64,000 bases of DNA, from positions 188,521-252,520 of the forward strand of contig DASZXH010000053.1 of assembly GCA_035545995.1 (NCBI GenBank), written 5' to 3'. Of this stretch, positions 16,706 through 53,760 are shown in pieces. Origin of the DNA: Verrucomicrobiia bacterium. Its GTDB lineage: Bacteria; Verrucomicrobiota; Verrucomicrobiia; Limisphaerales; UBA11358. The position numbers and the translations under genes are program-made. How positions within the stretch are numbered: position 1 is the first letter of the stretch; each line of letters opens with the position of its first letter. The notes under the pieces were generated by a model. It searched no databases and was not told the DNA's origin. It worked only from the letters and a program-made list of their open reading frames with translations.

Positions 16706-18886
16706 ATGACCATGAAATTTTGTTTGTTCTTATTTTGTCTAACAATCGTCTCTTTCGTGTCCGGCGCAGAAACTCCGCCACTTTACCTCAATAGCAATCA
16801 GCCCATTGAAACGCGGGTTGACGATTTATTTTCACGAATGACGCTTGAAGAAAAAATTTCACTCGTTCACGCCAATACAACATTTACCACCGCCGCCATT
16901 ACTCGCCTGGGCGTCCCTTGCCGCTGGATGGATGATGGTCCGAATGGCGTGCGCGAGGACATCAGCCCGAATAGTTGGAATTCCGCTGGTCGCACAGACG
17001 ATTTTTCGACGGCCATGCCCGTCGGTATTTGCCTCGCGGCAACATGGAATCCCGATTTAGCTTACGCGGAAGGCGAAACCATCGGCGAAGAAGCCCGCGC
17101 CCGAGGTAAAGACATCATGTTGGGGCCAACGGTCAACATCATGCGGACGCCATTGTGGGGGCGTAACTTTGAATCCTTCGGCGAAGACCCCTTCCTCACG
17201 TCAAAGACGGCCGTTGGTTTTATCCATGGCGAGCAATCGCAGGATGTGTCTTCCTGTGTGAAACACCTCGTCGCCAATAATCAGGAGAGTGAACGCGGCA
17301 GCATAGATGTGGAGATGAGCGAGCGAGCGTTGCGGGAGATTTATCTGCCGGCGTTTAAGGCTGCCGTGCAGGAAGGTGGCGTTTTGTCAGTCATGGGCGC
17401 TTACAACCGGTTCCACAATCAGTATTGCTGCGAAAACGATTATTTGCTTAACCAAATTCTGAAAGGTGAATGGGGCTTCAAAGGTTTGGTCATGTCCGAT
17501 TGGGGCGGCGCGCACGACACGCGAGACGAAGCGATAAATGGCCTTGACCTCGAAATGGGCCTTGATAGCAAACTCGGCGGAATCAAGAGTTACAATAATT
17601 GTCATCTGGCGCAGCCCTACCTCGATTTGCTCCAAAAAGGCGAATTGCCGATGTCGGGACTGGACGACAAAGTTCGTCGCAATCTGCGTGTGATGTTCGC
17701 CACGCATGTTTTCGATTCGGGGCGCACTAATGGTTCGCTCAATACCGTTGCTCATCAAATGGCCGCCCGCCGGATCGCCGAGGAAGGCATCGTGCTTTTG
17801 AAAAACAAAAATCATTTGCTGCCGCTCGATTCGGCCAAAATCAAAACCATCGCTGTCATTGGCGAAAATGCGATTCGTCTTCAAGCCGACGGAGGCAACA
17901 GTTCGGGCATCAAAGCCTTTTATGAAGTCACGCCGCTGCAAGGCATCTTGAATCGAGTTGGTAAAAACGTGAATGTGACTTTTTCCGAAGGTTATCAGAA
18001 AGACGGCGACGCGCACTTGGCTGAACGCGCCATTGCTGCGGCGAAAGCTGCCGACGCAGTTATCTATATTGGCGGCTTGAACCATGATTTAGGCTTCGAT
18101 TGCGAAGGCGCCGACCGCAAAGATTTGGACCTGCCGTATGGCCAGAACAAATTGATTTCACAAATTGTCGCGGCTAATCCACGTACCGTTGTGGTGGTGC
18201 TCGGCACGCCCGTTGCGATGAATTCCTGGCTCGAGCAAACGCCGTCCGTCTTGCAAGCGTGGTATTTGGGCATGGAAGGTGGCAATGCTTTGGCGCGTGT
18301 CCTGTTCGGCGACGTGAACCCTTCCGGCAAATTGCCCTGCACCATTCCGAAACGGCTAATGGATTGTCCGGCTTTCGCAGATTGTCCAGTTACTTATCCG
18401 GGAACCAATGGCGTCGTAACTTACAAAGAAGGTTTGCTTGTCGGTTATCGCTGGTTTGACACCCGGCACATCACGCCGCAATTTCCATTTGGTTTCGGCT
18501 TGAGTTATACGACGTTCAAATACTTGAACTTAAAATTGGTTGCGGGAGATGGAACGAATGCGCTGGTTGTCGCACAGTTTGAAATTCAAAACACCGGCGC
18601 GCGCGACGGCGCGGAAGTGGCGGAACTTTACGTTCACCAAAACCATCCGGGTCTGCCGCGTCCAGAAAAGGAATTGAAGGGATTCAAAAGGGTATTTTTG
18701 AAGTCCGGTGAAACGCAAACCGTTTCCATTCCACTGAACTTCAACGCATTTGCGTTTTACGATCCAGCGCAAAAAACATGGATTGCGGAAAAGGATGATT
18801 TCAAGATTTTGGTCGGCAGCTCTTCGCAAAACATTGCGTTGAAAGATGATTATCGGCTGGCGGAAACGCTCCGGGAAAAAGATTGA
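16706..18886 (+). CDS. GH3 beta-glucosidase (BglX-like) with C-terminal FnIII-like domain
   Basis: Signal MKFCLFLFCLTIVSFVSGA, KHLVANNQE, and GFKGLVMSDWGG (GH3 nucleophile region). The C-terminal ELKGFKRVFLKSGETQTVSIPL is typical of the FnIII-like domain. Confidence 0.9.
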   Translation: MTMKFCLFLFCLTIVSFVSGAETPPLYLNSNQPIETRVDDLFSRMTLEEKISLVHANTTFTTAAITRLGVPCRWMDDGPNGVREDISPNSWNSAGRTDDFSTAMPVGICLAATWNPDLAYAEGETIGEEARARGKDIMLGPTVNIMRTPLWGRNFESFGEDPFLTSKTAVGFIHGEQSQDVSSCVKHLVANNQESERGSIDVEMSERALREIYLPAFKAAVQEGGVLSVMGAYNRFHNQYCCENDYLLNQILKGEWGFKGLVMSDWGGAHDTRDEAINGLDLEMGLDSKLGGIKSYNNCHLAQPYLDLLQKGELPMSGLDDKVRRNLRVMFATHVFDSGRTNGSLNTVAHQMAARRIAEEGIVLLKNKNHLLPLDSAKIKTIAVIGENAIRLQADGGNSSGIKAFYEVTPLQGILNRVGKNVNVTFSEGYQKDGDAHLAERAIAAAKAADAVIYIGGLNHDLGFDCEGADRKDLDLPYGQNKLISQIVAANPRTVVVVLGTPVAMNSWLEQTPSVLQAWYLGMEGGNALARVLFGDVNPSGKLPCTIPKRLMDCPAFADCPVTYPGTNGVVTYKEGLLVGYRWFDTRHITPQFPFGFGLSYTTFKYLNLKLVAGDGTNALVVAQFEIQNTGARDGAEVAELYVHQNHPGLPRPEKELKGFKRVFLKSGETQTVSIPLNFNAFAFYDPAQKTWIAEKDDFKILVGSSSQNIALKDDYRLAETLREKD

Positions 18887-18918
18887 AGGGCAAAACAAAT
18901 TGGGATCGGGTTGCCTGG

Positions 18919-19899
18919 ATGCGGCGACTTCACTATGTTACGGATATGCAAAGGCCATCCCATGAATTTGCGGAGACGCTGGCCCCAATTACACCTTTGG
19001 ACACCGAGCCGGAGAGATTGGTGGTCCGCCCCAAACAGGTCAAGATGCCCGAAGACGGCTTGGTGGTTTTTGAAAGCCGGCATGGACCGGGCTTTTTCGG
19101 CGACCTGAAAGATTCATATTCCAAATTCCACTTGGTGATTCGCGGACGGGCGCAATGGGATGCCGGCGGGCGGAGTTATACGACCGCGCCGGATGTGCTT
19201 TTCCATATCGCGGCGGGCGTGCCGCATCGGATACGTGATGTGCCGCACGATCCGGTCTCCAATTACGTCATTCATTATCAACCGCAACTGCTGGACAAGG
19301 AACTGATGGAGCGGTTCGCGAAGCCTCCGGGCATTGTGCTGTTGAATCTGGCGAGCGCGGATTTGCAGCAGGCGGCTCCCATCCGTTCACTTTTCCGCGA
19401 GATGCTTTTTGAATCGGACGCTCAACAACCGGGTTGGAAGGTGCTGTTGAAATCGCGGTTGATTGAGCTTGCGGTGCGCACACTGCGCATGATGGAACGC
19501 CGAAATCAAAACGCGATGGTCTTCAAAGTGGGCAGTGACAGCATGGAACGCGTGACCCATTACGCGCTGCGTTTGAAATCATGTTTTTTCCGTCAACAGA
19601 CGCTTGAGGAAGCGGCCAAATCCGTTCATTTGAGCCGGCGACAGTTCACCGATTTATTCCGGCGGGTGACGGGAAAATCATGGCGGCGTTACATTAGAAC
19701 TTTGCGCCTTGAATATGCCGCCCGGTTGCTGGCGAACACAGATAAATCAGTCATTGCGGTGGCTTTCGAGGCCGGGTTCGAGGACCTTTCCCAATTCCAT
19801 CACAACTTCAAGGAAACTTACGGTTGCACGCCGTCGAATTATCGTGAAATGCATCAACAGCCATTTCACCCCGGCGCGGACTCTCTTTCGCATGATTAA
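18919..19899 (+). CDS. AraC-family transcriptional regulator (cupin + HTH)
   Basis: C-terminal LEEAAKSVHLSRRQFTDLFRRVTG..RLEYAARLLANTDKSVIAVAFEAGFEDLSQFHHNFKETYGCTPSNYR. ATG 18919 chosen; a TTG at 18883 overlapping the GH3 stop is an alternative. Confidence 0.85.
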   Translation: MRRLHYVTDMQRPSHEFAETLAPITPLDTEPERLVVRPKQVKMPEDGLVVFESRHGPGFFGDLKDSYSKFHLVIRGRAQWDAGGRSYTTAPDVLFHIAAGVPHRIRDVPHDPVSNYVIHYQPQLLDKELMERFAKPPGIVLLNLASADLQQAAPIRSLFREMLFESDAQQPGWKVLLKSRLIELAVRTLRMMERRNQNAMVFKVGSDSMERVTHYALRLKSCFFRQQTLEEAAKSVHLSRRQFTDLFRRVTGKSWRRYIRTLRLEYAARLLANTDKSVIAVAFEAGFEDLSQFHHNFKETYGCTPSNYREMHQQPFHPGADSLSHD

Positions 19900-20109: not shown

Positions 20110-20538
20110 ATGATTCTCGGTCGTATTCTGCATCCGGATATTCTATCGGCTCTGGGAAAAGCCGGCCACGGAAGCTGCGTTCTTATCGCCGACGGAAATT
20201 ATCCGTTTTCAACTCATTCTCCCGCCAGCGCCACGAAGGTATTCCTAAACCTTCGGCGCGGACTGGTAAAAGTGACCGATGTTTTGGAAGTGTTACGGGA
20301 CACGGTTCCTATCGAACAAGCAACACTGATGGCAACGTATGACGGCCAACCGGCAACAATCCATCGTGAATTTTCTAAACTACTATCCCAAGACGTGCCA
20401 ACCCGAACGCTGCCGCGGGCTGAATTTTACAGCGCAGTGAACCAACCAACGACGACGCTCGTCATTGCCACCGGCGAAGAACAGCGTTTTGCCAACATTT
20501 TAATCACCATCGGCGTCGTCAAATCGGACAAACCATGA
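20110..20538 (+). CDS. fucU: RbsD/FucU-family sugar mutarotase (L-fucose mutarotase-like)
   Basis: ILHPDILSALGKAGHGSCVLIADGNYP..VFLNLRRGLVKVTDVLEVL matches the RbsD/FucU signature. Confidence 0.75.
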   Translation: MILGRILHPDILSALGKAGHGSCVLIADGNYPFSTHSPASATKVFLNLRRGLVKVTDVLEVLRDTVPIEQATLMATYDGQPATIHREFSKLLSQDVPTRTLPRAEFYSAVNQPTTTLVIATGEEQRFANILITIGVVKSDKP

Positions 20539-21566
20539 AAGCATTGGTTCTCAAAGAATACATGAAACTCTCCTACGAGGAGGTGCCGATGCCGGAATTC
20601 GGGCCGACTGACGTGCTGGTGGTAGTGAAAGCCTGCGGCATCTGTGGCAGCGACGTCCACGGTTTGGATGGCTCCACGGGGCGGCGGCGTCCGCCCATCA
20701 TCATGGGGCATGAAGCTTCCGGCGTCATCGCGGAAGTGGGCAGCGCTGTCAACGGTTGGCAACGAGGCGACCGCGTCACCTTTGATTCAACCGTTTTCTG
20801 CGGGACGTGCAAATTCTGTCGGCGTGGTGACATCAACCTTTGCGACAACCGGCGGGTGCTCGGAGTGTCGTGCGAGGATTATCGGCAGCACGGAGCCTTC
20901 GCCGAATACGTCACCGTGCCCCAGCATATTCTCTATCGTTTGCCGGATGGATTGTCGTTTGAAAACGCGGCGATGGTCGAGCCGATTTCAATTGCGTTCC
21001 ATGCCGTGCGCCGCGCGCCGCCGGTGTTGAATGACACGGCGGTGGTGGTTGGCGCCGGGATGATTGGGCTGTTTGTTATTCAGGCTTTGCGGCTGGCGGG
21101 TTGCGGCAAAATCATCGCCGTGGATGTGGTCTCCGACAAATTGAAAATGGCCTGCGACTTGGGCGCTACTCACACAATCAATTCCGGCGAGGAGGATGCT
21201 GTTGCCCACGTCCAGAATCTTACAGGCGGATTCGGAGCGGACTTGACTGTGGAAGCTGTGGGTATGACGCAAACCGTGGAATTGGCCGTTCGTTGTGTGC
21301 GCAAGGGCGGTTCGGTGACTCTCGTCGGCAACGTGTCGCCTCGAATCGAATTACCACTTCAAGGAGTGGTCACCCGCGAGTTGACGATTTACGGTTCATG
21401 TGCCTCTTCCGGCGAATATCCGGCCTGTCTCGACATGCTGGTTCGTGGGTTGGTCAATCCTATGCCCATCTTGAGTGCCGTCGCGCCGCTGGCCGAAGGC
21501 GCGTCTTGGTTTGACCGGCTTTACCATAAGGAACCGGGTTTGTTGAAAGTGATTCTCAAACCATAA
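20535..21566 (+). CDS. Zn-dependent medium-chain alcohol/sugar dehydrogenase
   Basis: GICGSDVH, GHEASG, and the structural-zinc Cys cluster CGTCKFCRRGDINLC. GAGMIGL is the Rossmann motif. Overlaps fucU by 4 nt. Confidence 0.85.
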   Translation: MKALVLKEYMKLSYEEVPMPEFGPTDVLVVVKACGICGSDVHGLDGSTGRRRPPIIMGHEASGVIAEVGSAVNGWQRGDRVTFDSTVFCGTCKFCRRGDINLCDNRRVLGVSCEDYRQHGAFAEYVTVPQHILYRLPDGLSFENAAMVEPISIAFHAVRRAPPVLNDTAVVVGAGMIGLFVIQALRLAGCGKIIAVDVVSDKLKMACDLGATHTINSGEEDAVAHVQNLTGGFGADLTVEAVGMTQTVELAVRCVRKGGSVTLVGNVSPRIELPLQGVVTRELTIYGSCASSGEYPACLDMLVRGLVNPMPILSAVAPLAEGASWFDRLYHKEPGLLKVILKP

Positions 21567-21593
21567 ACGAATTTTCGGAGCACGGTTGAATTT

Positions 21594-22769
21594 ATGCAAC
21601 GCGAGAAAGTGAGAACGGCCATCGTCGGTTGCGGCAAAGTCGCGCATTTGCACGCGGAAGCGCTGAAAACACTTCCCGCATCCGAATTTGTCGCCGTGTG
21701 CGGCGGATCACATCCGGAGTGGCGCAACGCGTTCGCCGAAAGATATGGCGTGAAAGCGTATGCCACAATTGACGATTTGCTCGCCGCCGGAGTGGCCGAC
21801 ATGATTACGATTGCGACGCCGCATCCGGCGCACGCCGATGCCGCCACGAAAGCGGCACGTGCGGGTTTACATGTGCTGGTGGAGAAACCGCTGGCGTCTT
21901 CGTTGGAAGATTGCGACGCCATCCTTGCGGCGGCACGCGACGGTGGTGGCGTGCTCGGCATGATTTGCCAGCGACGCTTCTTCGCACCTTGTCAGCGAAT
22001 CCGGCGCGCCATTGATGATGGGAAACTTGGTCGCCCAATTCTTGGCGCCGTGACCATGCTTGGCTGGCGTGACGAAGCTTATTACCGCAGCGACCCCTGG
22101 CGCGGCTCTTGGCGGGGCGAAGGCGGTGGCGTATTGGTCAATCAAGCGCCGCATCAACTTGATTTGTTGTTGTGGTATATGGGCGAGATTGACGAGTTGT
22201 TTGGTTACTGGGCAAACCTCAATCATCCCACGATAGAAGTGGAAGATACGGCGGTAGCGGGGGTTCGTTTCAAGAATGGTGCGCTCGGCAACATCGTCGT
22301 CAGCAACAGTCAGAATCCCGCGCTCTACGGCAAGGTCACGGTTCACGGCAACAACGGCGCTTCCGTAGGCGTGCAAACTGACGGCGGCGCGATGTTCATT
22401 GCTGGAATGTCGAACATCACCGAACCGCCACTGAATGATTTGTGGAGCATCCCCGGCGAGGAAAATCTGCTAGCCCGGTGGCGACAGGAGGATACCGCGT
22501 ATTTCAACTCAATTAACGCCGTTGAGTATTATCACCGATTGCAAATTGACGATTTCCTTCACGCAATTCTCGATCAACGACCGCCGCTGATTACAGGCGA
22601 GGACGGAAGACGAACGGTTGAACTCTTCACGGCCATCTATCGTGCTAACCGCGACAGGAGAGCAATCCGTTTTCCTTTGGTCGCCGAGTCGGGACGCGAC
22701 GATTTTGATGGACGGCGCCCAAGACATTTGTCGGGTCGCGAAATAGAAGCCGCCGCCGGAACGATTTGA
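21594..22769 (+). CDS. Gfo/Idh/MocA-family oxidoreductase
   Basis: VRTAIVGCGKVAHLHAEAL N-terminal Rossmann fold, VLVEKPLA motif, and the family-typical C-terminal alpha/beta domain. Confidence 0.8.
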   Translation: MQREKVRTAIVGCGKVAHLHAEALKTLPASEFVAVCGGSHPEWRNAFAERYGVKAYATIDDLLAAGVADMITIATPHPAHADAATKAARAGLHVLVEKPLASSLEDCDAILAAARDGGGVLGMICQRRFFAPCQRIRRAIDDGKLGRPILGAVTMLGWRDEAYYRSDPWRGSWRGEGGGVLVNQAPHQLDLLLWYMGEIDELFGYWANLNHPTIEVEDTAVAGVRFKNGALGNIVVSNSQNPALYGKVTVHGNNGASVGVQTDGGAMFIAGMSNITEPPLNDLWSIPGEENLLARWRQEDTAYFNSINAVEYYHRLQIDDFLHAILDQRPPLITGEDGRRTVELFTAIYRANRDRRAIRFPLVAESGRDDFDGRRPRHLSGREIEAAAGTI

Positions 22770-23836
22770 TGGAACCAACACAAATTAAACCAATGGAACT
22801 ACGTCAATGCGGCAAATACGACTTGAAGCTGCCCGTGCTCGGTATGGGATGTTGGACTTACGGCGGCGGAGAATACTGGGGAGCGCAAAGTCAGCAGGAT
22901 GTCAATGAAGTGGTGCAATGCGCGGTGGAACGAGGAGCAAATTTTTTTGACACAGCGGAAGTCTATAACGAAGGCGCAAGTGAAAGTTCGTTGGGCATCG
23001 CGTTGCGGGGTATTCCGCGTGACAAGGTTTTGATTGGTACCAAAGTCAGTCCCTCGAACGTCGAGCCTAGAAATTTGGTCAAACATTGCGAAGCAAGTTT
23101 GCGGCGGTTGCAGACCAATTACATTGATCTCTACATGGTGCATTGGCCAATCACGGCACATTCCATCAAACACTTCACCAGCGAAAAAATACCGGTTCCC
23201 TCAGTGCTTGATGCGTTTGGTGCTTTGGAATTTTTAAGACAGTCGGGCAAAATACGTTATATCGGAGTCAGTAATTTTGGCGTGGAAAAACTTTCTGAAA
23301 CACTTGCGACCGGCGTCGAGATTGTCGTCAACGAACTGCCCTACAGCCTCCTGACCCGGGCCATCGAAATAGAAATTCTGCCGTTTTGCCGGGAGCAAGG
23401 TATTGGCGTGCTGGGATATATGTCGCTGATGCAAGGAGTGCTGGCCGGCATTTATCCGACTTTGGACGATGTGCCGATTTGGCGACGGCGCACACGGCAC
23501 TTCGACAGTCGGCGCACGCCTCAATGCCGTCATGGTCTTCCCGGCGTCGAACCAGAAACTAACGCCGCGCTCGCGAACATCCGGGCGATTGCCAGCAAAT
23601 ATAACATAACGATGTCAGAACTTGCTTTGAAATGGGCGTTTGCCGGCAAAGGCATCACCAGTTCTCTATGCGGCTCGCGCAACGTCAAGCAACTCCAAAT
23701 GAATATCAAGGCGGCTTCGGAGCCTTTGGACCAGAGTATAATAGAGGAATTGAGCCAAGCCACGCAGCCACTTATGGAAAAGTTAGGGCCGAGTTTTGAC
23801 TATTACGAAAACCCGGCAAATGACCGGACAAAGTAA
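22766..23836 (+). CDS. Aldo/keto reductase (possible L-fucose / D-threo-aldose 1-dehydrogenase)
   Basis: LGMGCWTYGG, FFDTAEVYNEGASE, IDLYMVHWP, IGVSNF. The specific substrate is inferred from context only. Confidence 0.75.
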   Translation: MMEPTQIKPMELRQCGKYDLKLPVLGMGCWTYGGGEYWGAQSQQDVNEVVQCAVERGANFFDTAEVYNEGASESSLGIALRGIPRDKVLIGTKVSPSNVEPRNLVKHCEASLRRLQTNYIDLYMVHWPITAHSIKHFTSEKIPVPSVLDAFGALEFLRQSGKIRYIGVSNFGVEKLSETLATGVEIVVNELPYSLLTRAIEIEILPFCREQGIGVLGYMSLMQGVLAGIYPTLDDVPIWRRRTRHFDSRRTPQCRHGLPGVEPETNAALANIRAIASKYNITMSELALKWAFAGKGITSSLCGSRNVKQLQMNIKAASEPLDQSIIEELSQATQPLMEKLGPSFDYYENPANDRTK

Positions 23837-23851
23837 CGAAATGGCAGTGCT

Positions 23852-25153
23852 TTGAATATCCAGCAAACCAATACTGTGACACGAAACCCGGCGTCGCCCG
23901 TAATTTCACGTTTGCGATGGATGATGGTCGGATTCGCCTTCGCCGCCACTGTCATTAATTATCTCGACAGGTCGGTGCTCGGACTGGTGGCCGCGTCGCC
24001 TGGTTTCAAAGAATCGGTTCACCTGACGGACGAAGCTTATGGCAACATCGGGGCCGCGTTCATGCTTGCCTACGCCATCAGTAACGGTCTTTCAGGGACG
24101 TTCATTGACACAGTGGGAACCCGCATCGGCTATGTGTGTTGCATGGCGTGGTGGTCTTTAGCGAGCATTCTTCATGCTTTTGTCAGAGGACCATTGTCGC
24201 TCGGTTGTTGTCAATTTTTGCTGGGCACCGGCGAAGCGGGCAACTGGCCCGCAGCGGCCAAAATGGTCAGCGAATGGTTTCCGGCAAAAGAACGCGCGCT
24301 GGCCTCGGGTATTTTCAACGCCGGCGCTTCCATCGGTGCCGTGATTTCACCGTTGGTCATTGTTTGGGTGGTTACAACCATGGGCTGGCGAAGCTCATTC
24401 GTGTTGATGGGAACATTGGGATTGCTCTGGGGCGTATGCTGGTGGTTGACTCATGCCTCGCTAAAAAACACAAATACCCCTGCGACGGCGCAAAGACAGA
24501 CTGTGCCGGTGGCGAAACTTTTGCGCACGCGGTTCGTGATGTTTTTCACACTCTCGAAAGTTTTCATGGATCCGGTGTGGTATTTTCTTTTATTCTGGTT
24601 TCCGAAATATTTGGCCGAAGTGCACCACTTCAGCATGAAGGAAATCGGCTGGAAGGGGGGAATACCATATTTCACGGCGGCGATAGGAAATCTTGCAGGC
24701 GGTTTTTTGGCGTCGCGGTTGATTCGTCATGGCCTTCCCACTACGGTTGCACGCAAAGCGAGCACAACTGTTTTTGCCCTGCTGATGACCTGCATTATTC
24801 CGGCCATTTTCACCAGCAACGCGCCGCTGGCCATTGCATTCATTTCGATCACAACTTTTGGTTATACCGGTTACACGGCCAACACGCTCGCGTTTCCGGC
24901 GGATATATTTCCAAAACAGATGGTCGCCTCGGTTTGGGGATTTGCGAGCATGGGATCAGGCTTCGGCGGTATGCTGTTTATGGCGCTGTCCGGCTGGGGA
25001 ATTGGTCATTATGGTTACATGCCGGTTTTCATTGGTTACGGAATTTTGCCGTTGCTGGCTTTAATCTGTATTTTGTTTCTAATCGGACCATTACGGAGCG
25101 ATGTGAAGTTTCAACCATCCAAAGAAACATCTGACTTCTTACTTTCGAGGTAG
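23852..25153 (+). CDS. MFS transporter (ACS/hexuronate-transporter-like)
   Basis: 12-TM-like hydrophobic profile, INYLDRSVLG, GEAGNWPAAAKMVSEWFPAKERA. The alternate-frame ORF 24136..25134 is a shadow. Confidence 0.8.
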   Translation: MNIQQTNTVTRNPASPVISRLRWMMVGFAFAATVINYLDRSVLGLVAASPGFKESVHLTDEAYGNIGAAFMLAYAISNGLSGTFIDTVGTRIGYVCCMAWWSLASILHAFVRGPLSLGCCQFLLGTGEAGNWPAAAKMVSEWFPAKERALASGIFNAGASIGAVISPLVIVWVVTTMGWRSSFVLMGTLGLLWGVCWWLTHASLKNTNTPATAQRQTVPVAKLLRTRFVMFFTLSKVFMDPVWYFLLFWFPKYLAEVHHFSMKEIGWKGGIPYFTAAIGNLAGGFLASRLIRHGLPTTVARKASTTVFALLMTCIIPAIFTSNAPLAIAFISITTFGYTGYTANTLAFPADIFPKQMVASVWGFASMGSGFGGMLFMALSGWGIGHYGYMPVFIGYGILPLLALICILFLIGPLRSDVKFQPSKETSDFLLSR

Positions 25154-25209
25154 AACCATTATTTAAAGAAAGAAAATTTCAGCCAATTCACCAAGTTTGT
25201 AAAAGGAAT

Positions 25210-25278
25210 CTATACCAAGGACATAGGCTAATCCAACCCCAATGCCGCGTTGACAAGTCTAACTTTCTAATCACTATT
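25210..25278 (+). promoter_or_regulatory. Conserved upstream box, copy C
   Basis: CTATaccaaggacATAGgctaatccaaCCCCAATGccgcgtTGACAAGTCTAACtttcTAATCACtat; ATG at 25290 (or 25305). Confidence 0.75.
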
Positions 25279-30140: not shown

Positions 30141-30171
30141 CTTCAAATAAATAATCTTAATTTATGCGATA

Positions 30172-30240
30172 CCTATACCATAGGTCTATGACAAACCAAC
30201 CCCAATGTTTCAGTGACAAATTTGAATACTTTAGCCATAC
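30172..30240 (+). promoter_or_regulatory. Conserved upstream box, copy D (closest to consensus)
   Basis: CCTATaccATAGGtctatgacaaaccaaCCCCAATGtttcagTGACAAATTTGAATacTTTAGCCATac; ATG at 30313. Confidence 0.8.
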
Positions 30241-39960: not shown

Positions 39961-40498
39961 GCGGTGTGAAACAATAAAATCATTCACCCGGCGTTCGCTT
40001 GTCTTGATTGTCATGGGCGTTTCTGGAAGCGGCAAAACAACGGTGGCGACATTGTTTGCAAAAAAAACTGGTGCGACTCTTTATGAAGGGGACGAATTTC
40101 ATCCGCCTGAAAACGTCGAAAAGATGCGCCGCGGCGTGCCGTTGACCGATGATGACCGGGCAAAATGGTTGCAAACTTTAAGAGGTATTATAGTCCGTTC
40201 ACTTGACAAAGATGGGTTCACCGTCATGACCTGTTCGGCATTGAAAGCAGCCTACCGCGATTTACTTCAAGGCGGTGACCCACGTATTCAGTTCGTCCAC
40301 CTCACCGGACCACGGGCTATTATTGAAGAACGGCTAAAAAACCGGCGCGGTCATTTCATGCCGCCGACGTTGTTGGACAGCCAACTGGCAACACTGGAAC
40401 CGCCGTCGGACGCGTTGACTTTTAGTTGCGAAAAGGCCTCTTCCGAGGAAATCGCAACCGCGATGATTCAGACTTTGGGCGTTGGCCGAACAACTTGA
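39959..40498 (+). CDS. gntK: Gluconokinase
   Basis: P-loop GVSGSGKTT plus GDEFHPPENVEKMRRGVPLTDDDRAKWL, the GntK/IdnK signature. ATG 39959 chosen because the track start 39920 lies in the terminator hairpin. Confidence 0.85.
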   Translation: MRCETIKSFTRRSLVLIVMGVSGSGKTTVATLFAKKTGATLYEGDEFHPPENVEKMRRGVPLTDDDRAKWLQTLRGIIVRSLDKDGFTVMTCSALKAAYRDLLQGGDPRIQFVHLTGPRAIIEERLKNRRGHFMPPTLLDSQLATLEPPSDALTFSCEKASSEEIATAMIQTLGVGRTT

Positions 40499-40552
40499 AT
40501 TCGCCACGCAATCAGAAGAAAGACCAGTATTTAGATAGTCTTGACAAACTCA

Positions 40553-40620
40553 CCTATGCCAAGGGTGTGGAATTGTCCCATCCTAATGTTGGGTTGACAA
40601 GTTCGCGTTTTCGGCAAGGA
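40553..40620 (+). promoter_or_regulatory. Conserved upstream box, copy F (more divergent)
   Basis: CCTATGCCaagggtgtggaattgtcccatCCTAATGttgggtTGACAAGTTCGCGTtTTCGGCAAGga; ATG at 40687. Confidence 0.65.
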
Positions 40621-40686
40621 TTGCTTACAGAATAAAACTGTAAAACATATCATTCGTGTTCGTGAGCACTTTCTCCCCAAGAATTC

Positions 40687-43512: not shown

Positions 43513-43633
43513 ACTTCCTGCTTCTCATGAATTGCCATTAATCATATTGAATATATTAGATGGAGTTTGGACATTTTTTGGTTGGTTTGATTCGTTGCCC
43601 GCCGTCACGGTTAACGATACGGTTGCTTAAGTA

Positions 43634-43706
43634 CCTATGCTGAAGGCATAGTAAAATCCAACCTTAATGTTTTGATGACAAGTTTGAATATTTTACCTAG
43701 AGTTGA
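43634..43706 (+). promoter_or_regulatory. Conserved upstream box, copy G
   Basis: CCTATGCtgaagGCATAGtaaaatccaaCCTTAATGttttgaTGACAAGTTTGAATatTTTACCTAGag; ATG at 43765. Confidence 0.8.
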
Positions 43707-45564: not shown

Positions 45565-45716
45565 ATTCGCCATGTGTCGCATAGGCGCTGATCAGCTTTG
45601 AGAAGGCGGTGGATTCAGATGGATAATCCTGACACGCGACTTGATTATCTCGCACGGGACGATGCAAATTTAGTGATTCCTCTTCTTTTTTCGTCAATTA
45701 CTGTGATTTAAGCGCA

Positions 45717-45785
45717 CCTATGCCAGGGGTATAGAATAATTCAACCCTAAAATCTTAATGACTGCTTTGGGTAGCTTATCTAAAG
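45717..45785 (+). promoter_or_regulatory. Conserved upstream box, copy H
   Basis: CCTATGCCaggGGTATAGaataattcaaCCCTAAAatcttaATGACTGCTTTGGGTagCTTATCTAAag. The track start 45758 falls inside this box. Confidence 0.7.
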
Positions 45786-45808
45786 TCACTGCTTCGACTG
45801 TGAAAAAT

Positions 45809-48800
45809 ATGGTTTGTAAATCAAATCTCAACGGCACCGTATTCGTGGAAAGGTGCAAACATTTTTTGAAAATACCTCTACACCATTCTAACCCTAAACC
45901 CATCGTCAGCGAAGGAAGAACCATTCCAGTGTTTAAGTTGTGTGATTCTTTAGTCAACCGAACTTTGATATTCGCCCTTTTTTTGCTCGTCGTAATTTTT
46001 CATTGCGGAATTGTTTTGGGAGCGGACAAACAGACTTGGGGAGTCAATGCAATCGTTCTAAAACCAGCTTGGAGTAATTCTCCTTCTTTGGACGACCTTC
46101 TGTCGGACCATGAACATACTGTGGTATTAAACCAATTTTATCGCAGCGGCGGCGACACTCGTCCAATGGAGCCGACCGAATGTCGCATCGCATACAACAG
46201 CAACACGCTCTTTGTAGTTTTTCGCTGCGAAGACAAGAATATGTCTTTCCCTTACACCAATCTGGATACGCAGTGGTGGTCAGAAGCGGATTGGCATTCG
46301 CTGCATGGTTTGCCTTCCGCATCGAACAACTGGCCGCCAAACCCTGATGAAGTGGATTTTTTGATTCAACCCGATGCAAGTGTTCCTTCCTATTACCAAT
46401 TTGCGGCGTCGGAACAGGGTTTGAAATTTGGCTGCAACCGATTGCTGAATTCCGGCTCTGATGCAACTCCGGATCAAGTTGCAATTGCCAATCATTCTTC
46501 AGCCCGCGCCAATGAGGTCGGCGCGTTTGAAGCAAACATTGTCAGGAAGGGCAATGAATGGCTGGTTTTTTTCCAAATACCGTGGGCCACTTTGGGGGGA
46601 AAGCCGAATTCTCATTTTGGTTTTTTGCCCATGCGAACGCGCTGGCGCGACGGCGAATTCACAACCCCAGTGGCGATTGATTTTAACGAAGGCTTGCCGG
46701 TTGATTTGTTAATCGAAACCCACTTTTCAGACACGGCACGAACTCAGGCTTCTCAAAGCAATTTATGCCGATTGCCTTCCGGCATACTTCGCTGGCAAAT
46801 GCCGGCAGTATTGACCTATCCCGACATTGAAACGTGCCAGCAAATTTGGCAGATGCAATCGTCGTTATCCACACCAACGGACAAGGACAATCTGGCGCAA
46901 CGACTTTATCTCATCCAACGCTGGATGGATTTGATGACGCTGGAAGGATTCACTCCGCTCCCCCGCGCTTGGGGAAATTTGACAAACGACCTGACGCTGG
47001 CGTTTTTCCGGCAAAAAGTGAACGCCACCTTTCAGAAGAATGACCTGCCGCAGGCGTGTCAATTGGTGGACACTTACTTGAGCCAGTTTGATAAAATGTC
47101 CCGATGGTGGTATGCCGACGGTTCGCCCGGCGACATTCTAAAGGACGAATGGAAATCAGTCACCAGCGCCGACAATTTGGAAGTGCAAGACAACACACTG
47201 CTGATGCGGTGCGCTGCCGGCAACCACGAAGTTGACCTGCGCCTTGCTCTGCCCGCAACAGGCGGGATAAGAATTTACGGCAATGATGAAGGTTACTGGA
47301 GACCATCTGATTTATTGCCGTTGAAAATCACTCAAACTTCAAACTCACGTTCCATCGAAACGGCTGAGGGCAGGATTGTTATCCACCAAAAGCCGTTTTC
47401 AATTTCTTTTTACAACGCCGATGGAAAAGAAGTGACGCAAATCGGCGCCGGAGACTTGGCTTTCAGGTTTGATTCGGATGGCAAGGTGCTCGCCGTAGAT
47501 TTCAGAAATCATCTTGCCTCAAGCGAGGCCATCTATGGCTTCGGAGAGAAATATGCTGACTTCAATGAAAATGGACAGGTATTGACGCTTTGGGGAACGG
47601 ATGACTGGGTTGGGAACGGGGAAGGTTTGGCGAACACCACCTACAAAGCCCTGCCAATCTTTCATAGTTCCAAGGGTTATATGGTTTTTAATAATTCATC
47701 TTATCGCTTGAGGGCGGATGTTGGAAAAACAAATCCAAATCAATATCGTTTCACGCAGCAAGGTCCGATATTCGATTATTATTTCTGGATTGGTTCACCG
47801 GAAAAGACATTGCAATCTTATACGGCTCTGACCGGCAGGCCGCCGCTGCCGCCGAAATGGGTTTTTGAACCGTGGATGGGTCGCGGTGGTGGAGCGTGGG
47901 CGCATGGCCCGTCGCACGATCCGGTGGCGGAAGAAGAAAGTGTCGCCAAGCGTTTCGCGGAATTGGACATTCCGCACTCAGCAATTTATGCCGAAGGCCC
48001 TTCCGCTCTTTCATCGGAATTGAACCAATTCATGGCGGCGCGCGGGATTAGAGTGTTGGGTTATTTTATGCCCGCGATTCAGCCATCGCGGCAAGAATCG
48101 CTCATGCCGGAACTAAAGTCCGATGAACTTCCAATCCTGCGCACCACGAACGGAAACATAGCTCCCGGATTTCGTGACGCTTACGTGGATTTCACCAGTC
48201 CGCACACCTTGGAACTTTGCCGACGAGCATTAGGGCGGGCTTTGGATTTGGGTGAGGCCGGAAGCATGGTGGATTTCGGCGATATGACGCCGGATGACGC
48301 CTTGTTTTATGACGGCAGACAAGGAGCGCAGATGCACAATTTTTACTATTACGACTACCAACGGACAGTCAGTGAAGTGTTTCAGGAGAAACGCGGGAAT
48401 GATTTCATCCTGTATGCCCGAGGCGCTGCGCCCGGCACGCAAAGATGGGTTGGACAATTTGCCGGTGATCATCCGGCCAATTTTGAAGGGCTTAGACATG
48501 TATTGACCGGCGCGCTGAATTTGTGCGCCTGCGGTTACTCTCTTTGGGGCAGCGATCTTGGCGGTTATTTCGGTTTTCCGCAACCGGCGGTGTATATGCG
48601 CTGGTTTCAATTCGGCTGCTTCAGTCCCTTGATGCGCCCGCACGGCACCGCGCCACGTGACCCGTGGTATTTCGGTGAAGCCGCTGTGACGAACTATAAA
48701 TTCCTGGCTTGGACCCGGGAAAATATATTGAATTACACCTACAATGCCGCTGTTGTCGCGCATAACACGGGTATCTCCATCATGCGTTCCATGCCGGTGG

Positions 48801-49426
48801 CATTTCCTGATGAATCGCAGGTGGCTGCCGTCGGAGACCAATATATGTTCGGGCCGGATTTACTCGTGGCGCCGGTGGTCAACGAAGATACTTTCAGGAT
48901 TGTCGCCTTTCCTTCCGGCGTGTGGACGAGCTTGTGGAATGGTAAAACAGTCACCGGCCCGGCCAAGCTCAAAGTGGACGCGCCTTTGGACACGATTCCA
49001 GTTTATTTGAAAGCGGGAGCTGTTATGCCGGTACAATTAAGTCCTGAATTGCAATTCGGCCAGAGCATGACCAGCGGTCGTGTCAGTGCTTTGATTGTAA
49101 CTCCCCCAAGACGAAATGAGGCCGTATCTCTACTCAACGCCCGCGGCGAAACTGCAAGGGTAATCGGGCAATCCAAATCTAATGGTTTTAGTTGGTCTCT
49201 CGAAAACTTTCCTGAAGCGAGTTATTTGTTGGTTTACGGCACAACGACCGCTTCTTCAATAAAGCTTAATGGCCAAATTTTGCCGAAGCTGGCGGCGGTT
49301 AAGTTTGGCTTGATGCCGACTGGTTGGGAAGCCGATTTGACCAGCAACCGGTTGGTTATTCGCTTACCGTCGCGCCAAATTGAGCAAAGCGATCCCAAAG
49401 CGAAAGTTGAAGTGGATGTCAATTGA
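45809..49426 (+). CDS. GH31 alpha-xylosidase-like (YicI type) with N-terminal CBM9/DOMON-like domain
   Basis: MVDFGDMTPDD matches YicI KTDFGERIPTD. QFAGDHPANFEGL and WGSDLGGYFG are also GH31 motifs. The N-terminal CRIAYNSNTLFVVFRCED..DEVDFLIQPD..YYQFAA is CBM9-like. The start is uncertain: ATG 45809, or GTG 45929 just before the hydrophobic segment LIFALFLLVVIFHCGIVLGA. Confidence 0.8.
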   Translation: MVCKSNLNGTVFVERCKHFLKIPLHHSNPKPIVSEGRTIPVFKLCDSLVNRTLIFALFLLVVIFHCGIVLGADKQTWGVNAIVLKPAWSNSPSLDDLLSDHEHTVVLNQFYRSGGDTRPMEPTECRIAYNSNTLFVVFRCEDKNMSFPYTNLDTQWWSEADWHSLHGLPSASNNWPPNPDEVDFLIQPDASVPSYYQFAASEQGLKFGCNRLLNSGSDATPDQVAIANHSSARANEVGAFEANIVRKGNEWLVFFQIPWATLGGKPNSHFGFLPMRTRWRDGEFTTPVAIDFNEGLPVDLLIETHFSDTARTQASQSNLCRLPSGILRWQMPAVLTYPDIETCQQIWQMQSSLSTPTDKDNLAQRLYLIQRWMDLMTLEGFTPLPRAWGNLTNDLTLAFFRQKVNATFQKNDLPQACQLVDTYLSQFDKMSRWWYADGSPGDILKDEWKSVTSADNLEVQDNTLLMRCAAGNHEVDLRLALPATGGIRIYGNDEGYWRPSDLLPLKITQTSNSRSIETAEGRIVIHQKPFSISFYNADGKEVTQIGAGDLAFRFDSDGKVLAVDFRNHLASSEAIYGFGEKYADFNENGQVLTLWGTDDWVGNGEGLANTTYKALPIFHSSKGYMVFNNSSYRLRADVGKTNPNQYRFTQQGPIFDYYFWIGSPEKTLQSYTALTGRPPLPPKWVFEPWMGRGGGAWAHGPSHDPVAEEESVAKRFAELDIPHSAIYAEGPSALSSELNQFMAARGIRVLGYFMPAIQPSRQESLMPELKSDELPILRTTNGNIAPGFRDAYVDFTSPHTLELCRRALGRALDLGEAGSMVDFGDMTPDDALFYDGRQGAQMHNFYYYDYQRTVSEVFQEKRGNDFILYARGAAPGTQRWVGQFAGDHPANFEGLRHVLTGALNLCACGYSLWGSDLGGYFGFPQPAVYMRWFQFGCFSPLMRPHGTAPRDPWYFGEAAVTNYKFLAWTRENILNYTYNAAVVAHNTGISIMRSMPVAFPDESQVAAVGDQYMFGPDLLVAPVVNEDTFRIVAFPSGVWTSLWNGKTVTGPAKLKVDAPLDTIPVYLKAGAVMPVQLSPELQFGQSMTSGRVSALIVTPPRRNEAVSLLNARGETARVIGQSKSNGFSWSLENFPEASYLLVYGTTTASSIKLNGQILPKLAAVKFGLMPTGWEADLTSNRLVIRLPSRQIEQSDPKAKVEVDVN

Positions 49427-52500: not shown

Positions 52501-53760
52501 GCGGCGCGACTTATGGCTGGGCACATTTTGGATTATGCCTTGCACTCTCCATTGTCGCCACGGGTAAACAAAGTCGTGTATCTGGGTGGCGCAGCCGGCG
52601 CGGCTTGGTTGGATAAAATCGGAGTCGGTTACGAACGGTCGGACACTCTGGACACAAGCGCTGAGTTGACGTTGATTAGCTCGGACGCAACCATTGATGC
52701 AACGGCACTCAACACCTACTTAGAAAATGGCGGCAAAGTGTTTTTCCTGCCGCGCACCCAACCAGATGGACCGTTGAATACCACTTTGAAACCTGCGGCA
52801 GACGATTTCGCCGGTTCACTGTCAGTACCAGATTGGCCACAAACCGAAGGTTTAAGCGCGTCGGACCTTCGCTGGCGCACTCACTTGGATAATCCTCCTT
52901 GGATTTTGGGTGGTGGAGCGGAGATTGGCGCGGATGGCCTGATTGGCCGTAAAACCGTTGGAAAGGGCGTGGCCATTTTCTGTCAGGTGGACCCGGACCG
53001 CTTTGATGCGGACCAGAAAACCTATTTCCGCTACACCCGTTGGCGATCCACTCGCGCAGTAGCCCAACTTCTGGCTAACCTTGGCGCCAGTTTCCCAGTG
53101 GACAGCCGAATTTTTCATCCGCTCGACACTTGGTCACTTAACTTGAATGGAACATGGCAGATGAAAGTCACACTCAACGCCACGTCCATCGCCAGTAAGA
53201 ACTCAGGAAATTCCGATACGGGCATCAGCCCGGCCGCGCAAGCATTGGTCGGAAAAACTGCGCCATCGGACGGCTGGACTTCAGTAACATTGCCCCAAAT
53301 CTTCAAAAACGACAATCAAGAAGCAGTATTTCGCAAAGAAATCACCATTCCGGACGGCGAAGCAGGCAAGGACTTGACGCTTAAGCTCGGCGCACTCGAC
53401 GGCTCTGACAATACTTATTTCAATGGCGAAGAAATCGGGCACAAGGACATGAAGTCTGCAGAAGAACAGGAAACGTCGCGCAATTACACGGTGCCTGGGA
53501 ACTTGGTAAAAGTTGGCAAAAATGTCGTCGCCATCCAGCTCTTTAGCCTCTCTGGTTCGGAAGGCTTTTCAGGCAAACCGGGTTTTCCGATGGGACCCGA
53601 TGGTAATCGGTCGGGGCGTCAAAGCACAGGCCCGCGAGTTGGTTTGGAAATGTCTTTGAATCTCCAGCCCGAAGGCGTCCAGACTCTTGGATATTATTAC
53701 CCCGACTATCGCACTGATTTCCAAATGGGAGACAACCCCTATCGCTATTATCGGTGGTAG
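49510..53760 (+). CDS. Very large (~1400 aa) GH2-like multidomain glycoside hydrolase
   Basis: GH2 N-terminal sugar-binding block (DGIWRFIP..WAYIKVPGSW..HAWYERQVTIP..ISLRFERVSTDAIIYVNGKECG). Ig/TIM entry NLYTLRLTV..FGFREFWIEGRQFYLNGTVIHLR. A second galactose-binding-like domain lies near the C-terminus. I could not find a canonical NE acid/base motif. The ATG 49510 start is uncertain. Confidence 0.65.
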   Translation: MMHNQQESPSIHFNQLLNVKLRLILACLCFSGVVSQAWAQQTQPADTVLPTGMSLNWDGLKVETVNAKRSQASLDGIWRFIPATEGVSEPPQAGWAYIKVPGSWGSGGGGRRGGRSGQGAPSALIAQGSGPQWENYNGSRVEHAWYERQVTIPSDWQGRTISLRFERVSTDAIIYVNGKECGRVSWPWGSVDITSAVTPGQAANVRVLVAAIADAEQVGDFWQNAFMNVTYSAARLRTRGLIGSVYLESRPTEAHVNDVFVRTSTRKKDIALDVDLADVKQSGQVHFVADMLNEKGEVEKSFNADATVEAKSTQTVTVSWPWEHPRLWDVDQPNLYTLRLTVMGAGVDDQFNQEFGFREFWIEGRQFYLNGTVIHLRQPNFNNGPLGSVGDIFSEVGSQAVDTRGDTSDAGPELDRYDHKGYLAAVYILDANKYMRDPHGNLVWKQNQQRALDRTEVWMHHYRNHPSAVMWIAGFNFFNSAVDADPHYIGRDGWGQDDQSWWRNMAAGKEMFEELKKLDPTRVYYSHAGAYAGDVYSMNLYLDMLPLQEREDWLSHWAENGIMPITMTEFGTPMDCSFRRGREGFESNITSEPLLTEYAAIYFGTAAYADEESKYRQYLHDLFRGGMLYNSSENQLDVYTNDHRIQQLYRVNTWRSWRTADLPGGLRIWSHMSDALNEVNYPTLAWIAGSTNDYTAKDHHFNSGQKFQKQIVLINDMRQPENFTATWTATVGGQQVSQGELHGTLAVSEIRKMPIEITTPQVEAGDKANGEITLTATIGEVTHHDTFAFRVFGRERLDDGDIATIDPGGLTSKMLKSLGYSTQTWNGSAAALVVVGRNALQDNPAMAAKLEPYVRSGGRVLIFAQDPTWMTEAFGWRVCPKVSRYVFPVPNSPVTQEIDADDLLNWTGNSTLIPAYPEYTGDYLRGNEREQPYTGWHWGNQGGVSSAAIEKPHRSGWTPLLECEFDLAYAPLMELNYGEGRVIFCTLDLEDHVLLDPAARLMAGHILDYALHSPLSPRVNKVVYLGGAAGAAWLDKIGVGYERSDTLDTSAELTLISSDATIDATALNTYLENGGKVFFLPRTQPDGPLNTTLKPAADDFAGSLSVPDWPQTEGLSASDLRWRTHLDNPPWILGGGAEIGADGLIGRKTVGKGVAIFCQVDPDRFDADQKTYFRYTRWRSTRAVAQLLANLGASFPVDSRIFHPLDTWSLNLNGTWQMKVTLNATSIASKNSGNSDTGISPAAQALVGKTAPSDGWTSVTLPQIFKNDNQEAVFRKEITIPDGEAGKDLTLKLGALDGSDNTYFNGEEIGHKDMKSAEEQETSRNYTVPGNLVKVGKNVVAIQLFSLSGSEGFSGKPGFPMGPDGNRSGRQSTGPRVGLEMSLNLQPEGVQTLGYYYPDYRTDFQMGDNPYRYYRW

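Follow-up and report, generated by a model that had tools for sequence, protein, structure and literature searches.

Analysis of a 64-kb window from a metagenome-assembled Verrucomicrobiia bacterium (assembly GCA_035545995.1, contig DASZXH010000053.1) revealed a 41-kb glycan-degrading gene set, which extends from the first copy of a repeated upstream box at position 12741 to the end of a GH2-like gene at position 53760 (Table 1). The window is the whole stretch of 64,000 nucleotides that was analyzed, and all positions refer to it. Scans of its open reading frames (ORFs) against Pfam and NCBIfam bore out the gene families that an initial annotation had named for positions 16706-53760, and the identical gene order was found in two Logan assemblies. 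This range holds the enzyme genes, but it excludes the box copy at 12741, the gene behind it and the adjacent two-component system. Likewise in agreement with the initial annotation, which had reported that a SusC/SusD pair is missing, Pfam identified neither SusC nor SusD nor a TonB-dependent receptor among all ORFs of the window with a length of 150 aa or more.

Eight copies of a 70-nt operator-promoter box, all located on the plus strand, are distributed over the gene set. The box was defined by inspection of intergenic regions and alignment, and a subsequent nhmmer scan of the window returned the eight copies with E-values from 2e-12 to 3e-19, whereas the best match to the box model outside of them had E = 0.12. 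Each box starts with the palindrome CTATGCC-N3-GGCATAG, followed by CCAACCCCAATG, a -35 hexamer (T/G)TGACA and, 17 nt further on, a -10 hexamer; a generic promoter scan recognizes four of the eight copies. The eight copies argue for a co-regulation of the cluster. The former statement that the genes share a conserved upstream box holds for these eight sites, but for the FucU operon and for GH29 neither intergenic inspection nor the nhmmer scan detected an upstream copy. A degenerate version of the box precedes the GH3-AraC and GH9 orthologs in a related genome (L006/L035).

Orthologs of the cluster genes are also clustered in other Verrucomicrobia, at 61-87% identity. The gene order in L006/L035 is GH29, kinase, GH31, SSF transporter, AraC, GH3, ROK, SIS and GH9, followed by a XylR-type regulator, an N_methyl protein and a giant fn3/X-module protein. 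L007 combines GH2-like, hydrolase, FucU, alcohol dehydrogenase (ADH), Gfo/Idh/MocA (GFO) and major facilitator superfamily (MFS) genes with a GH140-like gene, GH9, XylR, an N_methyl protein and a giant protein. Orthologs of the oxidoreductase operon (65-87%) adjoin GH9 in L007 and L092 and GH31 in L036, where the entire operon is present; in L092 (4900-22409), seven tandem GH9 paralogs with 54-77% identity to the GH9 of the window lie directly behind a FucU-ADH-GFO-aldo-keto reductase (AKR)-MFS operon. Co-localization of GH31, GH29, GH2-like, hydrolase, Zn-ADH and MFS genes was furthermore observed in peat Acidobacteriaceae. In a scan of GTDB species genomes, members of the GH31 subfamily with 57-80% identity turned up in Verrucomicrobia as well as in many metagenome-assembled genomes of peat/soil Acidobacteriaceae. 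The GH31 proteins of Verrucomicrobia and those of peat Acidobacteriaceae (Terracidiphilus, Silvibacterium; L011-L063) are up to 80% identical, which, together with up to five paralogs per Acidobacterial genome, suggests lateral transfer and expansion of GH31 in peat bacteria. In 54 loci, the neighbors that recur at a distance of up to 10 kb from GH31 include GH29 (15 loci), Zn-ADH (10), a CarboxypepD_reg/TonB-type outer-membrane barrel (9), the tandem hydrolase (8), MFS (7) and GH2-like (6). Since the genes have a common operator and their synteny is kept across genomes and phyla, they form one functional unit, and the locus very probably represents a coherent glycan-utilization regulon.

Table 1. 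Genes and operator-promoter boxes of the glycan-degrading gene set (window coordinates; E-values from nhmmer).
Feature	Position	Strand	Assignment or remark
Box copy 1	12741..12811	+	E = 2.1e-12; sigma-70-like site 12783-12811; precedes pseudopilin-like N_methyl/DUF1559 gene
Pseudopilin-like protein	12836..13657	+	Pfam N_methyl; DUF1559/SBP_bac_10-like; GspG-like N-terminus; first gene behind box
NarL/LuxR-type response regulator	13710..14345	-	Response_reg + GerE (Pfam)
HisKA_3 sensor kinase	14342..16564	-	Pfam
Box copy 2	16619..16689	+	E = 2.9e-19; promoter-like site 16661-16689; precedes GH3
GH3	16706-18886	+	Pfam GH3 N, C and Fn3-like domains
AraC regulator	18883/18919-19899	+	Pfam; feature 18919..19899; gene call in L001
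RbsD/FucU	20110-20538	+	Pfam
Zn-ADH	20535-21566	+	Pfam
Gfo/Idh/MocA	21594-22769	+	Pfam
AKR	22766-23836	+	Pfam
MFS_1	23852-25153	+	Pfam; anion:cation-symporter type by NCBIfam
Box copy 3	25207..25278	+	E = 2e-16; precedes GH9
GH9 + CelD_N	ORF 25290-27701, feature 25305..27701	+	Pfam
Tandem α/β-hydrolase, 781 aa	ORF 27795-30140, feature 27813..30140	+	Pfam DLH
Box copy 4	30170..30241	+	E = 5.7e-18; promoter-like site 30213-30241; precedes PEP-CTERM protein
PEP-CTERM protein PEP225, 225 aa	30313-30990	+	PEP-CTERM, single X module
U767, 767 aa, GH51-like	ORF 31037-33340, feature 31079..33340	+	
Isochorismatase-like + GH29 fusion	33365-35812	-	Pfam
Box copy 5	36095..36166	+	E = 3.3e-19; precedes U1223
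U1223, 1223-aa YDG/MBG protein	36225-39896	+	
GntK/IdnK-type gluconokinase	ORF 39920-40498, feature 39959..40498	+	TIGR01313
Box copy 6	40551..40622	+	E = 6.9e-17; precedes U941
U941, 941 aa, GH51-like	40687-43512	+	
Box copy 7	43632..43703	+	E = 2.1e-18; promoter-like site 43675-43703; precedes U599
U599, 599 aa, GH39/PslG-like	43765-45564	+	
Box copy 8	45715..45786	+	E = 2.5e-17; overlaps first ATG of GH31 ORF
GH31	ORF 45758-49426, feature 45929..49426	+	Pfam
GH2-like, 1416 aa	49510-53760	+	Pfam

The sensor kinase/response regulator pair (13710-16564) lies between box copies 1 and 2. The ~480 N-terminal residues that precede the kinase domains are read as a sensor domain. An ortholog of the sensor kinase (55%) is found beside GH29 and GH31 in L035, and an arrangement of histidine kinase, response regulator, N_methyl and GH51-like genes recurs in L091. 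The LuxR-type response regulator is a candidate binder of the palindromic operator, an identity that we infer. The AraC gene lies behind GH3, with which it is putatively co-transcribed, and the GH3-AraC pair is kept at 72-73% identity in L006.

The GH9 protein belongs to its family (69.6 bits at a Pfam cut-off of 27.7) but is divergent. It is a predicted secreted protein composed of an Ig-like CelD_N domain, the catalytic domain with the motif HDAGDADRR, in which DAGD is kept, and a C-terminal sorting-type domain; a lenient Pfam scan gave nothing usable for its N-terminus, and the same applies to the sensor region of the kinase. The gene call in the database (798 aa) uses a start that lies behind the first ATG of the ORF. 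Best PDB matches are endoglucanase 3x17 (2e-22) and BoGH9A (1.5e-13), and the protein is a putative backbone β-1,4-glucanase. Its former designation as a GH9-like endoglucanase agrees with the family membership and the DAGD motif, although the protein is distant from every characterized enzyme. A function as exo-β-glucosaminidase, prompted by amino-sugar genes upstream of the cluster and by the ROK and SIS genes beside GH9 in L006, was considered but found no support: except for the xyloglucan-specific BoGH9A and two "J30" chains, the PDB matches with E ≤ 0.001 are endoglucanases, cellobiohydrolases or cellulases. This idea is also weakened by the fact that these upstream genes (GH2 glucosaminidase, NagB-like, GH20) have no box.

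For GH3, the NCBIfam models rank in the order arabinopyranosidase, β-glucosidase and β-xylosidase, all of them far below their cut-offs. The family assignment was retained, but with every equivalog below its cut-off the specific label of a β-glucosidase was not, and the protein is a candidate secreted exo-glycosidase of β-glucosidase, β-xylosidase or α-L-arabinopyranosidase type. The tandem α/β-hydrolase matches DLH and, weakly, GCE_fung (glucuronoyl esterase), S9 and AXE1; a PDB search yielded no informative relative. It is a candidate secreted esterase.

The best PDB relatives of GH31 are maltase-glucoamylase, YicI, Lmo2446 and other enzymes acting on α-glucosides (~1e-50 to 1e-61). Throughout the subfamily the nucleophile motif "GSMVDFGD" and the acid/base motif "QFAGDH" are invariant and the catalytic Asp residues are kept. 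A lenient Pfam scan of the N-terminal region (~350-400 aa) gave nothing usable. At 45758, where the longest ORF begins, the sequence still belongs to the promoter box of the gene; a GTG at 45929 precedes a signal peptide. Because box copy 8 lies over the first ATG, the true start of GH31 has to be sought downstream, most likely at GTG 45929. The Acidobacterial orthologs bear Tat signals instead.

Good matches of the GH2-like protein, which is predicted to be secreted, are limited to its N-terminal sugar-binding and Ig domains. The nucleophile motif "TEFG" in the TIM barrel is invariant, and the family shows "WIAG-x-N-(F/L/Y)" in place of "W-x-x-G-N-E"; this lack of the acid/base Glu suggests an unusual mechanism or substrate. 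A GH2-acetylesterase fusion, which would have suited acetylated fucogalacto-xyloglucan, was considered in view of a C-terminal similarity to sialate/xyloglucan acetylesterases (PDB 7kmm, 9ega). It was dismissed, as the matched stretch is a GH2_N-like jelly roll and no SASA/SGNH match was obtained.

GH29 belongs to subfamily A, with PDB matches from 4.7e-38 downward (6gn6, 3.5e-37; human FUCA1, 6.5e-32); the subfamily takes in broad fucosidases, a xyloglucan-active Saccharolobus enzyme (PMC8037949) and an exo-α-L-galactosidase. The protein carries a Tat signal and an isochorismatase-like domain. The previously proposed fucosidase fusion is upheld as to family and fusion. The gene has no box. 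Exo-α-L-galactosidases are found in GH29-A as well, and the enzyme is a candidate α-L-fucosidase or α-L-galactosidase. While the isochorismatase-like domain is fused to GH29 in Verrucomicrobia, a separate Tat-exported CN-hydrolase is encoded in Acidobacteriaceae between GH29 and GH31 in six loci (e.g., L015 7162-8331, L018 7495-8604). Homology of the N-terminal domain of the GH29 fusion to this CN-hydrolase was rejected, as no similarity was found. Being non-homologous, the isochorismatase-like domain and the CN-hydrolase represent two Cys-hydrolase-type folds at an equivalent genomic position.

The three clan GH-A enzymes named in the initial annotation, U767, U941 and U599, were confirmed by their folds and glutamate motifs and are real. 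The catalytic domains (475 aa) of U767 and U941 are 62% identical to each other, and an alignment of 24 homologs showed invariant "GNE" and "TE(N)N" motifs. Neither protein has a Pfam or NCBIfam match of its own. The family profile matches GH51 arabinofuranosidases in the PDB (E = 5e-21) over half of the domain, and Foldseek searches with an AlphaFold2 model (pLDDT 76.5) gave TM-scores of ~0.7 at 14-17% identity to GH51, GH44 and GH79 alike. For U599, which carries an Ig repeat and the C-terminal domain described below, the model of the catalytic domain has a pLDDT of 88.7; the best Foldseek matches are GH39 5jvk (9e-20) and PslG (TM 0.75), with TM-scores of 0.69-0.75 at 13-18% identity overall. 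WNE and TE motifs are invariant in the U599 family. In Pfam only a sub-threshold GH42 match was obtained, and homologs weakly match GH10, GH42, GH39, GH5 and GH_cc. A U599 homolog with 71% identity directly follows two GH12 genes in L090 (6381-11494), with GH2 and CE2/GDSL esterase genes nearby. Proteins of this contig bear a type IX secretion system sorting tail.

All-against-all BLASTP of the cluster proteins revealed several shared modules. One copy of an X module of ~190 aa, to which a lenient Pfam scan assigned no family, is contained in the PEP-CTERM protein, another forms the N-terminal part of U767, and U1223 has three. YDG/Ig repeats are common to U1223, U941 and U599, and a common C-terminal domain with the pattern "...LQxSTNL..W..V...F(F/Y)R" ends GH9, U767, U1223, U941 and U599. 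These common anchors, as well as signal or Tat peptides, are visible in the cluster protein sequences. The initial annotation had placed CBM-like, MBG and C-terminal modules on the enzymes; YDG, MBG, X and C-terminal domains are indeed present, but the 1223-aa protein is devoid of a catalytic domain. In addition to its X modules, U1223 consists of YDG/MBG/Ig repeats and the C-terminal domain, and family scans detected no catalytic domain in it. It is read as a binding protein, putatively one that binds glycans at the surface. Over its C-terminal third, U1223 shares 46-52% identity with the end regions of giant fn3 proteins encoded beside GH9 in L006, L007, L010 and L045. The PEP-CTERM/X-module protein is likewise a putative surface glycan-binding protein. 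Genes of the pseudopilin-like type adjoin GH9 or GH51-like genes in L006, L007, L010, L089 and L091. A hairpin with a 17-bp stem at 31017-31053, between the PEP-CTERM gene and the U767 gene, may act as an attenuator.

The cytoplasmic operon (20110..25153, plus strand) comprises RbsD/FucU, Zn-ADH, Gfo/Idh/MocA, AKR and MFS genes. The genes of the fucose-type operon described earlier are thus present, but the fucose label found no support: the first protein scores 42.6 bits with the RbsD and 30.4 bits with the FucU model, both below cut-off, and Pfam and NCBIfam scans of operon and window yielded no FucI, FucK, FucA, lactonase or dehydratase; FucP is missing as well, and in other genomes the operon accompanies GH9 and GH31. 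An assignment of Zn-ADH and MFS as counterparts of E. coli LgoD/LgoT (L-galactonate) was considered but appears doubtful at 28% identity, with the IolM and Tdh models scoring higher. For the gluconokinase, a terminator-like 14-bp hairpin with a T-run at 39920-39951 (plus strand), 3′ of U1223, overlaps the annotated TTG start of the ORF, and the gene is therefore probably transcribed separately.

Taken together, the locus is probably a SusC/SusD-independent polysaccharide-utilization regulon, which belongs to a not yet cultured Verrucomicrobium from soil or peat. One regulator would bind the palindromic operator, which lies ~35 bp ahead of each of eight almost identical promoters of sigma-70 type. 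The best candidate is the adjacent HisKA_3/LuxR two-component system and the alternative the GH3-linked AraC protein. It would switch on surface proteins with a C-terminal or PEP-CTERM anchor, namely GH9, the two GH51-like enzymes, the GH39/PslG-like enzyme and two non-catalytic proteins built of the repeated 190-aa binding module, in addition to the pseudopilin-like protein and the periplasmic exo-enzymes GH3, GH31, GH2-like and tandem esterase. The GH29-A fusion and the cytoplasmic oxidoreductase/MFS operon, located in the same cluster, would be driven by other promoters. As for the localization and order of action, we infer that the surface enzymes would cut the polymer into oligosaccharides, from which periplasmic enzymes would then strip the ester, fucose, a further sugar (GH2-like), an α-linked sugar (GH31) and the backbone residues (GH3).

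The xyloglucan utilization locus (XyGUL) of Bacteroides ovatus comprises GH5_4, GH9, GH31, GH2, two GH3 and two GH43 enzymes together with SusC/SusD and a hybrid two-component sensor (HTCS). Its BoGH9A and BoGH31A are among the PDB matches of the GH9 and GH31 of the window. Both loci have clustered, apparently co-regulated GH9, GH31, GH2-type, GH3 and arabinofuranosidase-like enzymes, with predicted surface binding proteins accompanying surface endo-enzymes and periplasmic exo-enzymes. In contrast to the XyGUL, the window contains no SusC/SusD, TonB-dependent receptor or HTCS, its binding proteins are of X-module/PEP-CTERM type, its fucosidase is a member of GH29 and not of GH95, its clan GH-A enzymes are of GH51-like/GH39-like type and not GH5_4 or GH43, GH31 lacks PA14 and the GH2-like protein lacks the acid/base residue. 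The loci of Xanthomonas citri and Cellvibrio japonicus are similar in that they belong to non-Bacteroidetes Gram-negative bacteria and combine an exo-cascade of fucosidase, galactosidase, xylosidase and glucosidase with an esterase (PMC8245568, PMC4285296). In Xanthomonas, GH9 (XacEgl9, an auxiliary xyloglucanase) and GH3 act as auxiliaries (PMC8245568). Unlike the window, these loci use GH74, GH35, GH95, CE20 and TonB-dependent transporters, with xylose isomerase/xylulokinase nearby. In Thermotoga maritima, GH74 is found near GH29, GH31 and GH42 (PMC12144081), and in Saccharolobus solfataricus exo-enzymes of GH1, GH29-A and GH31 act together on xyloglucan oligosaccharides (PMC8037949). As in the window, a GH29-A fucosidase accompanies a GH31 without PA14 in both organisms, in Thermotoga by chromosomally close genes; the window differs by its surface-anchored multimodular enzymes and by a GH31 whose best PDB relatives are YicI and maltase-glucoamylase at ~26%. 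Freshwater Verrucomicrobial CUT loci are GH clusters centered on TonB-dependent receptors, and fucose is used via a microcompartment pathway (PMC5615132). They share with the window the phylum, the clustering of hydrolases with transporters and sugar catabolism and the predicted extracellular enzymes, whereas the window has no receptor and an oxidoreductase operon in place of the microcompartment fucose pathway. Xyloglucan loci beyond Bacteroidota are already known (Cellvibrio, Xanthomonas, Thermotoga, Ruminiclostridium). What differs here is the lack of an outer-membrane receptor gene, the pseudopilin-like gene in the regulon, the eight-fold operator, the X-module binding proteins with PEP-CTERM/C-terminal anchors, and divergent enzyme subfamilies that also occur in Acidobacteriaceae.

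As to the substrate, the enzymes probably digest a complex polysaccharide of plant type that bears fucose. A fucosylated, esterified hemicellulose of xyloglucan type is the leading candidate and is tentatively regarded as the most likely one, closely followed in likelihood by a different glycan that is fucosylated, esterified or acidic. The combination of GH9, GH31, GH2-type, GH3, GH29, arabinofuranosidase-like enzymes and esterase would make up a textbook xyloglucan set. The recurrent pairing of GH29 and GH31 fits a fucosylated substrate, XylR-type regulators beside GH9 in L006 and L007 and a XylE-like porter in related loci favor xyloglucan, and the position of the U599 homolog next to GH12, GH2 and CE2 genes in L090 was counted for it as well. 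A considerable number of observations weigh against this assignment. Genes of GH5_4, GH12, GH16, GH44 and GH74 are missing from the window, as are those for xylose isomerase and xylulokinase, and no cluster enzyme is close to a characterized xyloglucan-active one. The cellulase matches of GH9 have E-values of only 1e-13 to 1e-22, the closest GH9 homolog (76%) stands alone, unclustered with any of the other genes, and a 55%-identical planctomycete GH9 lies in a rhamnogalacturonan context among PL11, GH28 and GH2 genes. GH31 is 26% identical to E. coli YicI, and all of its subfamily has "IYAEG" and a 15-aa deletion where YicI has the motif HFDCFWM. This motif includes Cys307/Phe308, which according to YicI mutagenesis select xylose over glucose. 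Owing to the low identity and the changed motif, GH31 is considered a distinct subfamily. Pfam also found no PA14 match in it, and a PA14 aromatic platform marks the GH31 enzymes specific for xyloglucan oligosaccharides (PMC8245568); YicI is only the nearest relative, and the designation "YicI-type" had to be abandoned. The same applies to the β-galactose label of the GH2-like protein, for which an alignment of the window protein with five orthologs (L011, L029, L033, L037, L046) showed "G(F/R/A/P)N(F/L/Y)" in place of the clan GH-A acid/base motif "GNE" in six of six sequences. The MFS protein is of the D-galactonate/anion-symporter (sugar-acid) type in NCBIfam and not a FucP, and the gluconokinase scores 174.5 bits with TIGR01313 (cut-off 113.75). 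The missing box upstream of the FucU operon and GH29 points in the same direction, as do further GH31 neighbors in the 54 loci, namely a gluconate-5-dehydrogenase/KduD-like short-chain dehydrogenase/reductase (SDR; 10 loci), GH140-like (7), Tat-exported CN-hydrolase (6) and GH39 (6). As to the complete saccharification of fucosylated xyloglucan proposed in the initial annotation, the gene inventory mirrors that of characterized xyloglucan systems, but the proposal is called into question by the non-canonical GH31 and GH2-like sites and by the lack of a proven xyloglucanase family.

Several of these observations can be read as signs of another polymer, and it is quite conceivable that the regulon, with its architecture and regulation unchanged, serves an esterified heteroglycan that bears fucose or L-galactose, is probably acidic and is abundant in peat and acid soil. 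Pectic side chains of rhamnogalacturonan I or II (RG-I/RG-II) type, glucuronoxylan-lignin esters, a uronic-acid-containing bryophyte xyloglucan or a microbial exopolysaccharide would come into question. GH31 would then remove an α-linked sugar other than xylose, and the operon, the anion:cation-symporter-type MFS and the gluconokinase would catabolize a sugar acid. The type of the MFS and the gluconokinase above cut-off agree with this, and so do the SDR of the Acidobacterial partner loci, the recurrence of GH140-like, GH39, CN-hydrolase and esterase genes beside GH31, the weak glucuronoyl esterase matches of the hydrolase, the similarity of U599 to PslG, an exopolysaccharide-hydrolase type, the planctomycete GH9 homolog in a cluster of RG-I lyase and GH28, the non-canonical active-site motifs of GH31 and GH2-like, and the occurrence of exo-α-L-galactosidases within GH29-A. 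However, the window contains no pectate lyase, GH28, GH43, GH78, GH105, GH106 or sulfatase gene, the combination of GH9, GH3, GH31 and GH29 is the classic one for xyloglucan, and both the XylR/XylE-type genes of related loci and the GH12 genes adjoining the U599 homolog speak for the latter. A more far-reaching possibility, considered somewhat unlikely, is that the cross-phylum module targets a not-yet-recognized fucosylated and acyl- or amide-decorated glycan via new enzyme specificities and not canonical xyloglucan. This module, consisting of GH31, GH29 with a fused or neighboring Cys-hydrolase-type domain, GH2-like, hydrolase and RbsD-ADH-GFO-AKR-MFS, is common to Verrucomicrobiota and peat Acidobacteriaceae, with identities of 45-80%. 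An unusual GH2-like catalysis and a non-canonical pathway for the oxidation of sugars may be involved, and pseudopilin and X modules may capture the glycan without a receptor.

It appears improbable that the genes constitute a general regulon for the scavenging of β-glucans and hemicelluloses, with surface endo-enzymes and broad exo-glycosidases but without a single cognate polymer. The expansion of GH9 to seven tandem paralogs in L092, the GH31 paralogs of Acidobacterial genomes, the differing gene sets around the anchor genes and the typically broad specificity of GH3 and GH29-A would be in line with such a role, but one highly conserved operator implies a single inducing signal, and the tight GH31-GH29-hydrolase-ADH-MFS module found across phyla suggests one defined oligosaccharide. 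A chance juxtaposition of unrelated genes for carbohydrate-active enzymes, to which the unclustered GH9 homolog and the box-free GH29 and oxidoreductase operon might be attributed, is effectively refuted by the eight box copies (E ≤ 2e-12, no other match below 0.1 in 64 kb) and by the repeated co-localization of orthologs in several genomes of two phyla.

Among the bacteria of carbon turnover in peat and soil, Verrucomicrobia and Acidobacteria are dominant but poorly represented in culture, and their capture and digestion of plant polymers without SusC/SusD is little understood. The locus offers a compact regulon with anchored multimodular enzymes and binding proteins, divergent GH31, GH2-like, GH51-like and GH39-like enzymes and an operon tied to GH9 and GH31. 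If xyloglucan is the substrate, it would be the first such system for the phylum, as far as the literature found shows; if not, the cross-phylum module points to an unrecognized glycan-processing pathway in peat.

The surroundings of the gene set contain further genes. Downstream of the GH2-like gene, genes for NDH-2, an encapsulin with a DyP peroxidase, an SDR, a phospholipase-D-family (cardiolipin-synthase-like) protein and regulators follow; the Linocin_M18 encapsulin and DyP-type peroxidase genes (55982-57872, minus strand) form a classic cargo-shell pair outside of the cluster. Upstream, a separate amino-sugar cluster (3491-12000) includes a GH2 exo-β-D-glucosaminidase-like gene with an Ig_GlcNase domain (4489-7239) and a NagB/6-phosphogluconolactonase-like gene (8830-9828). 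Its GH20 frame (9953-10588) stops after 211 aa and only short ORFs follow until ~12000, and it is therefore probably a pseudogene or an assembly error. A second PEP-CTERM protein of 276 aa, with no further recognizable domain, is encoded at 2462-3292 on the minus strand.

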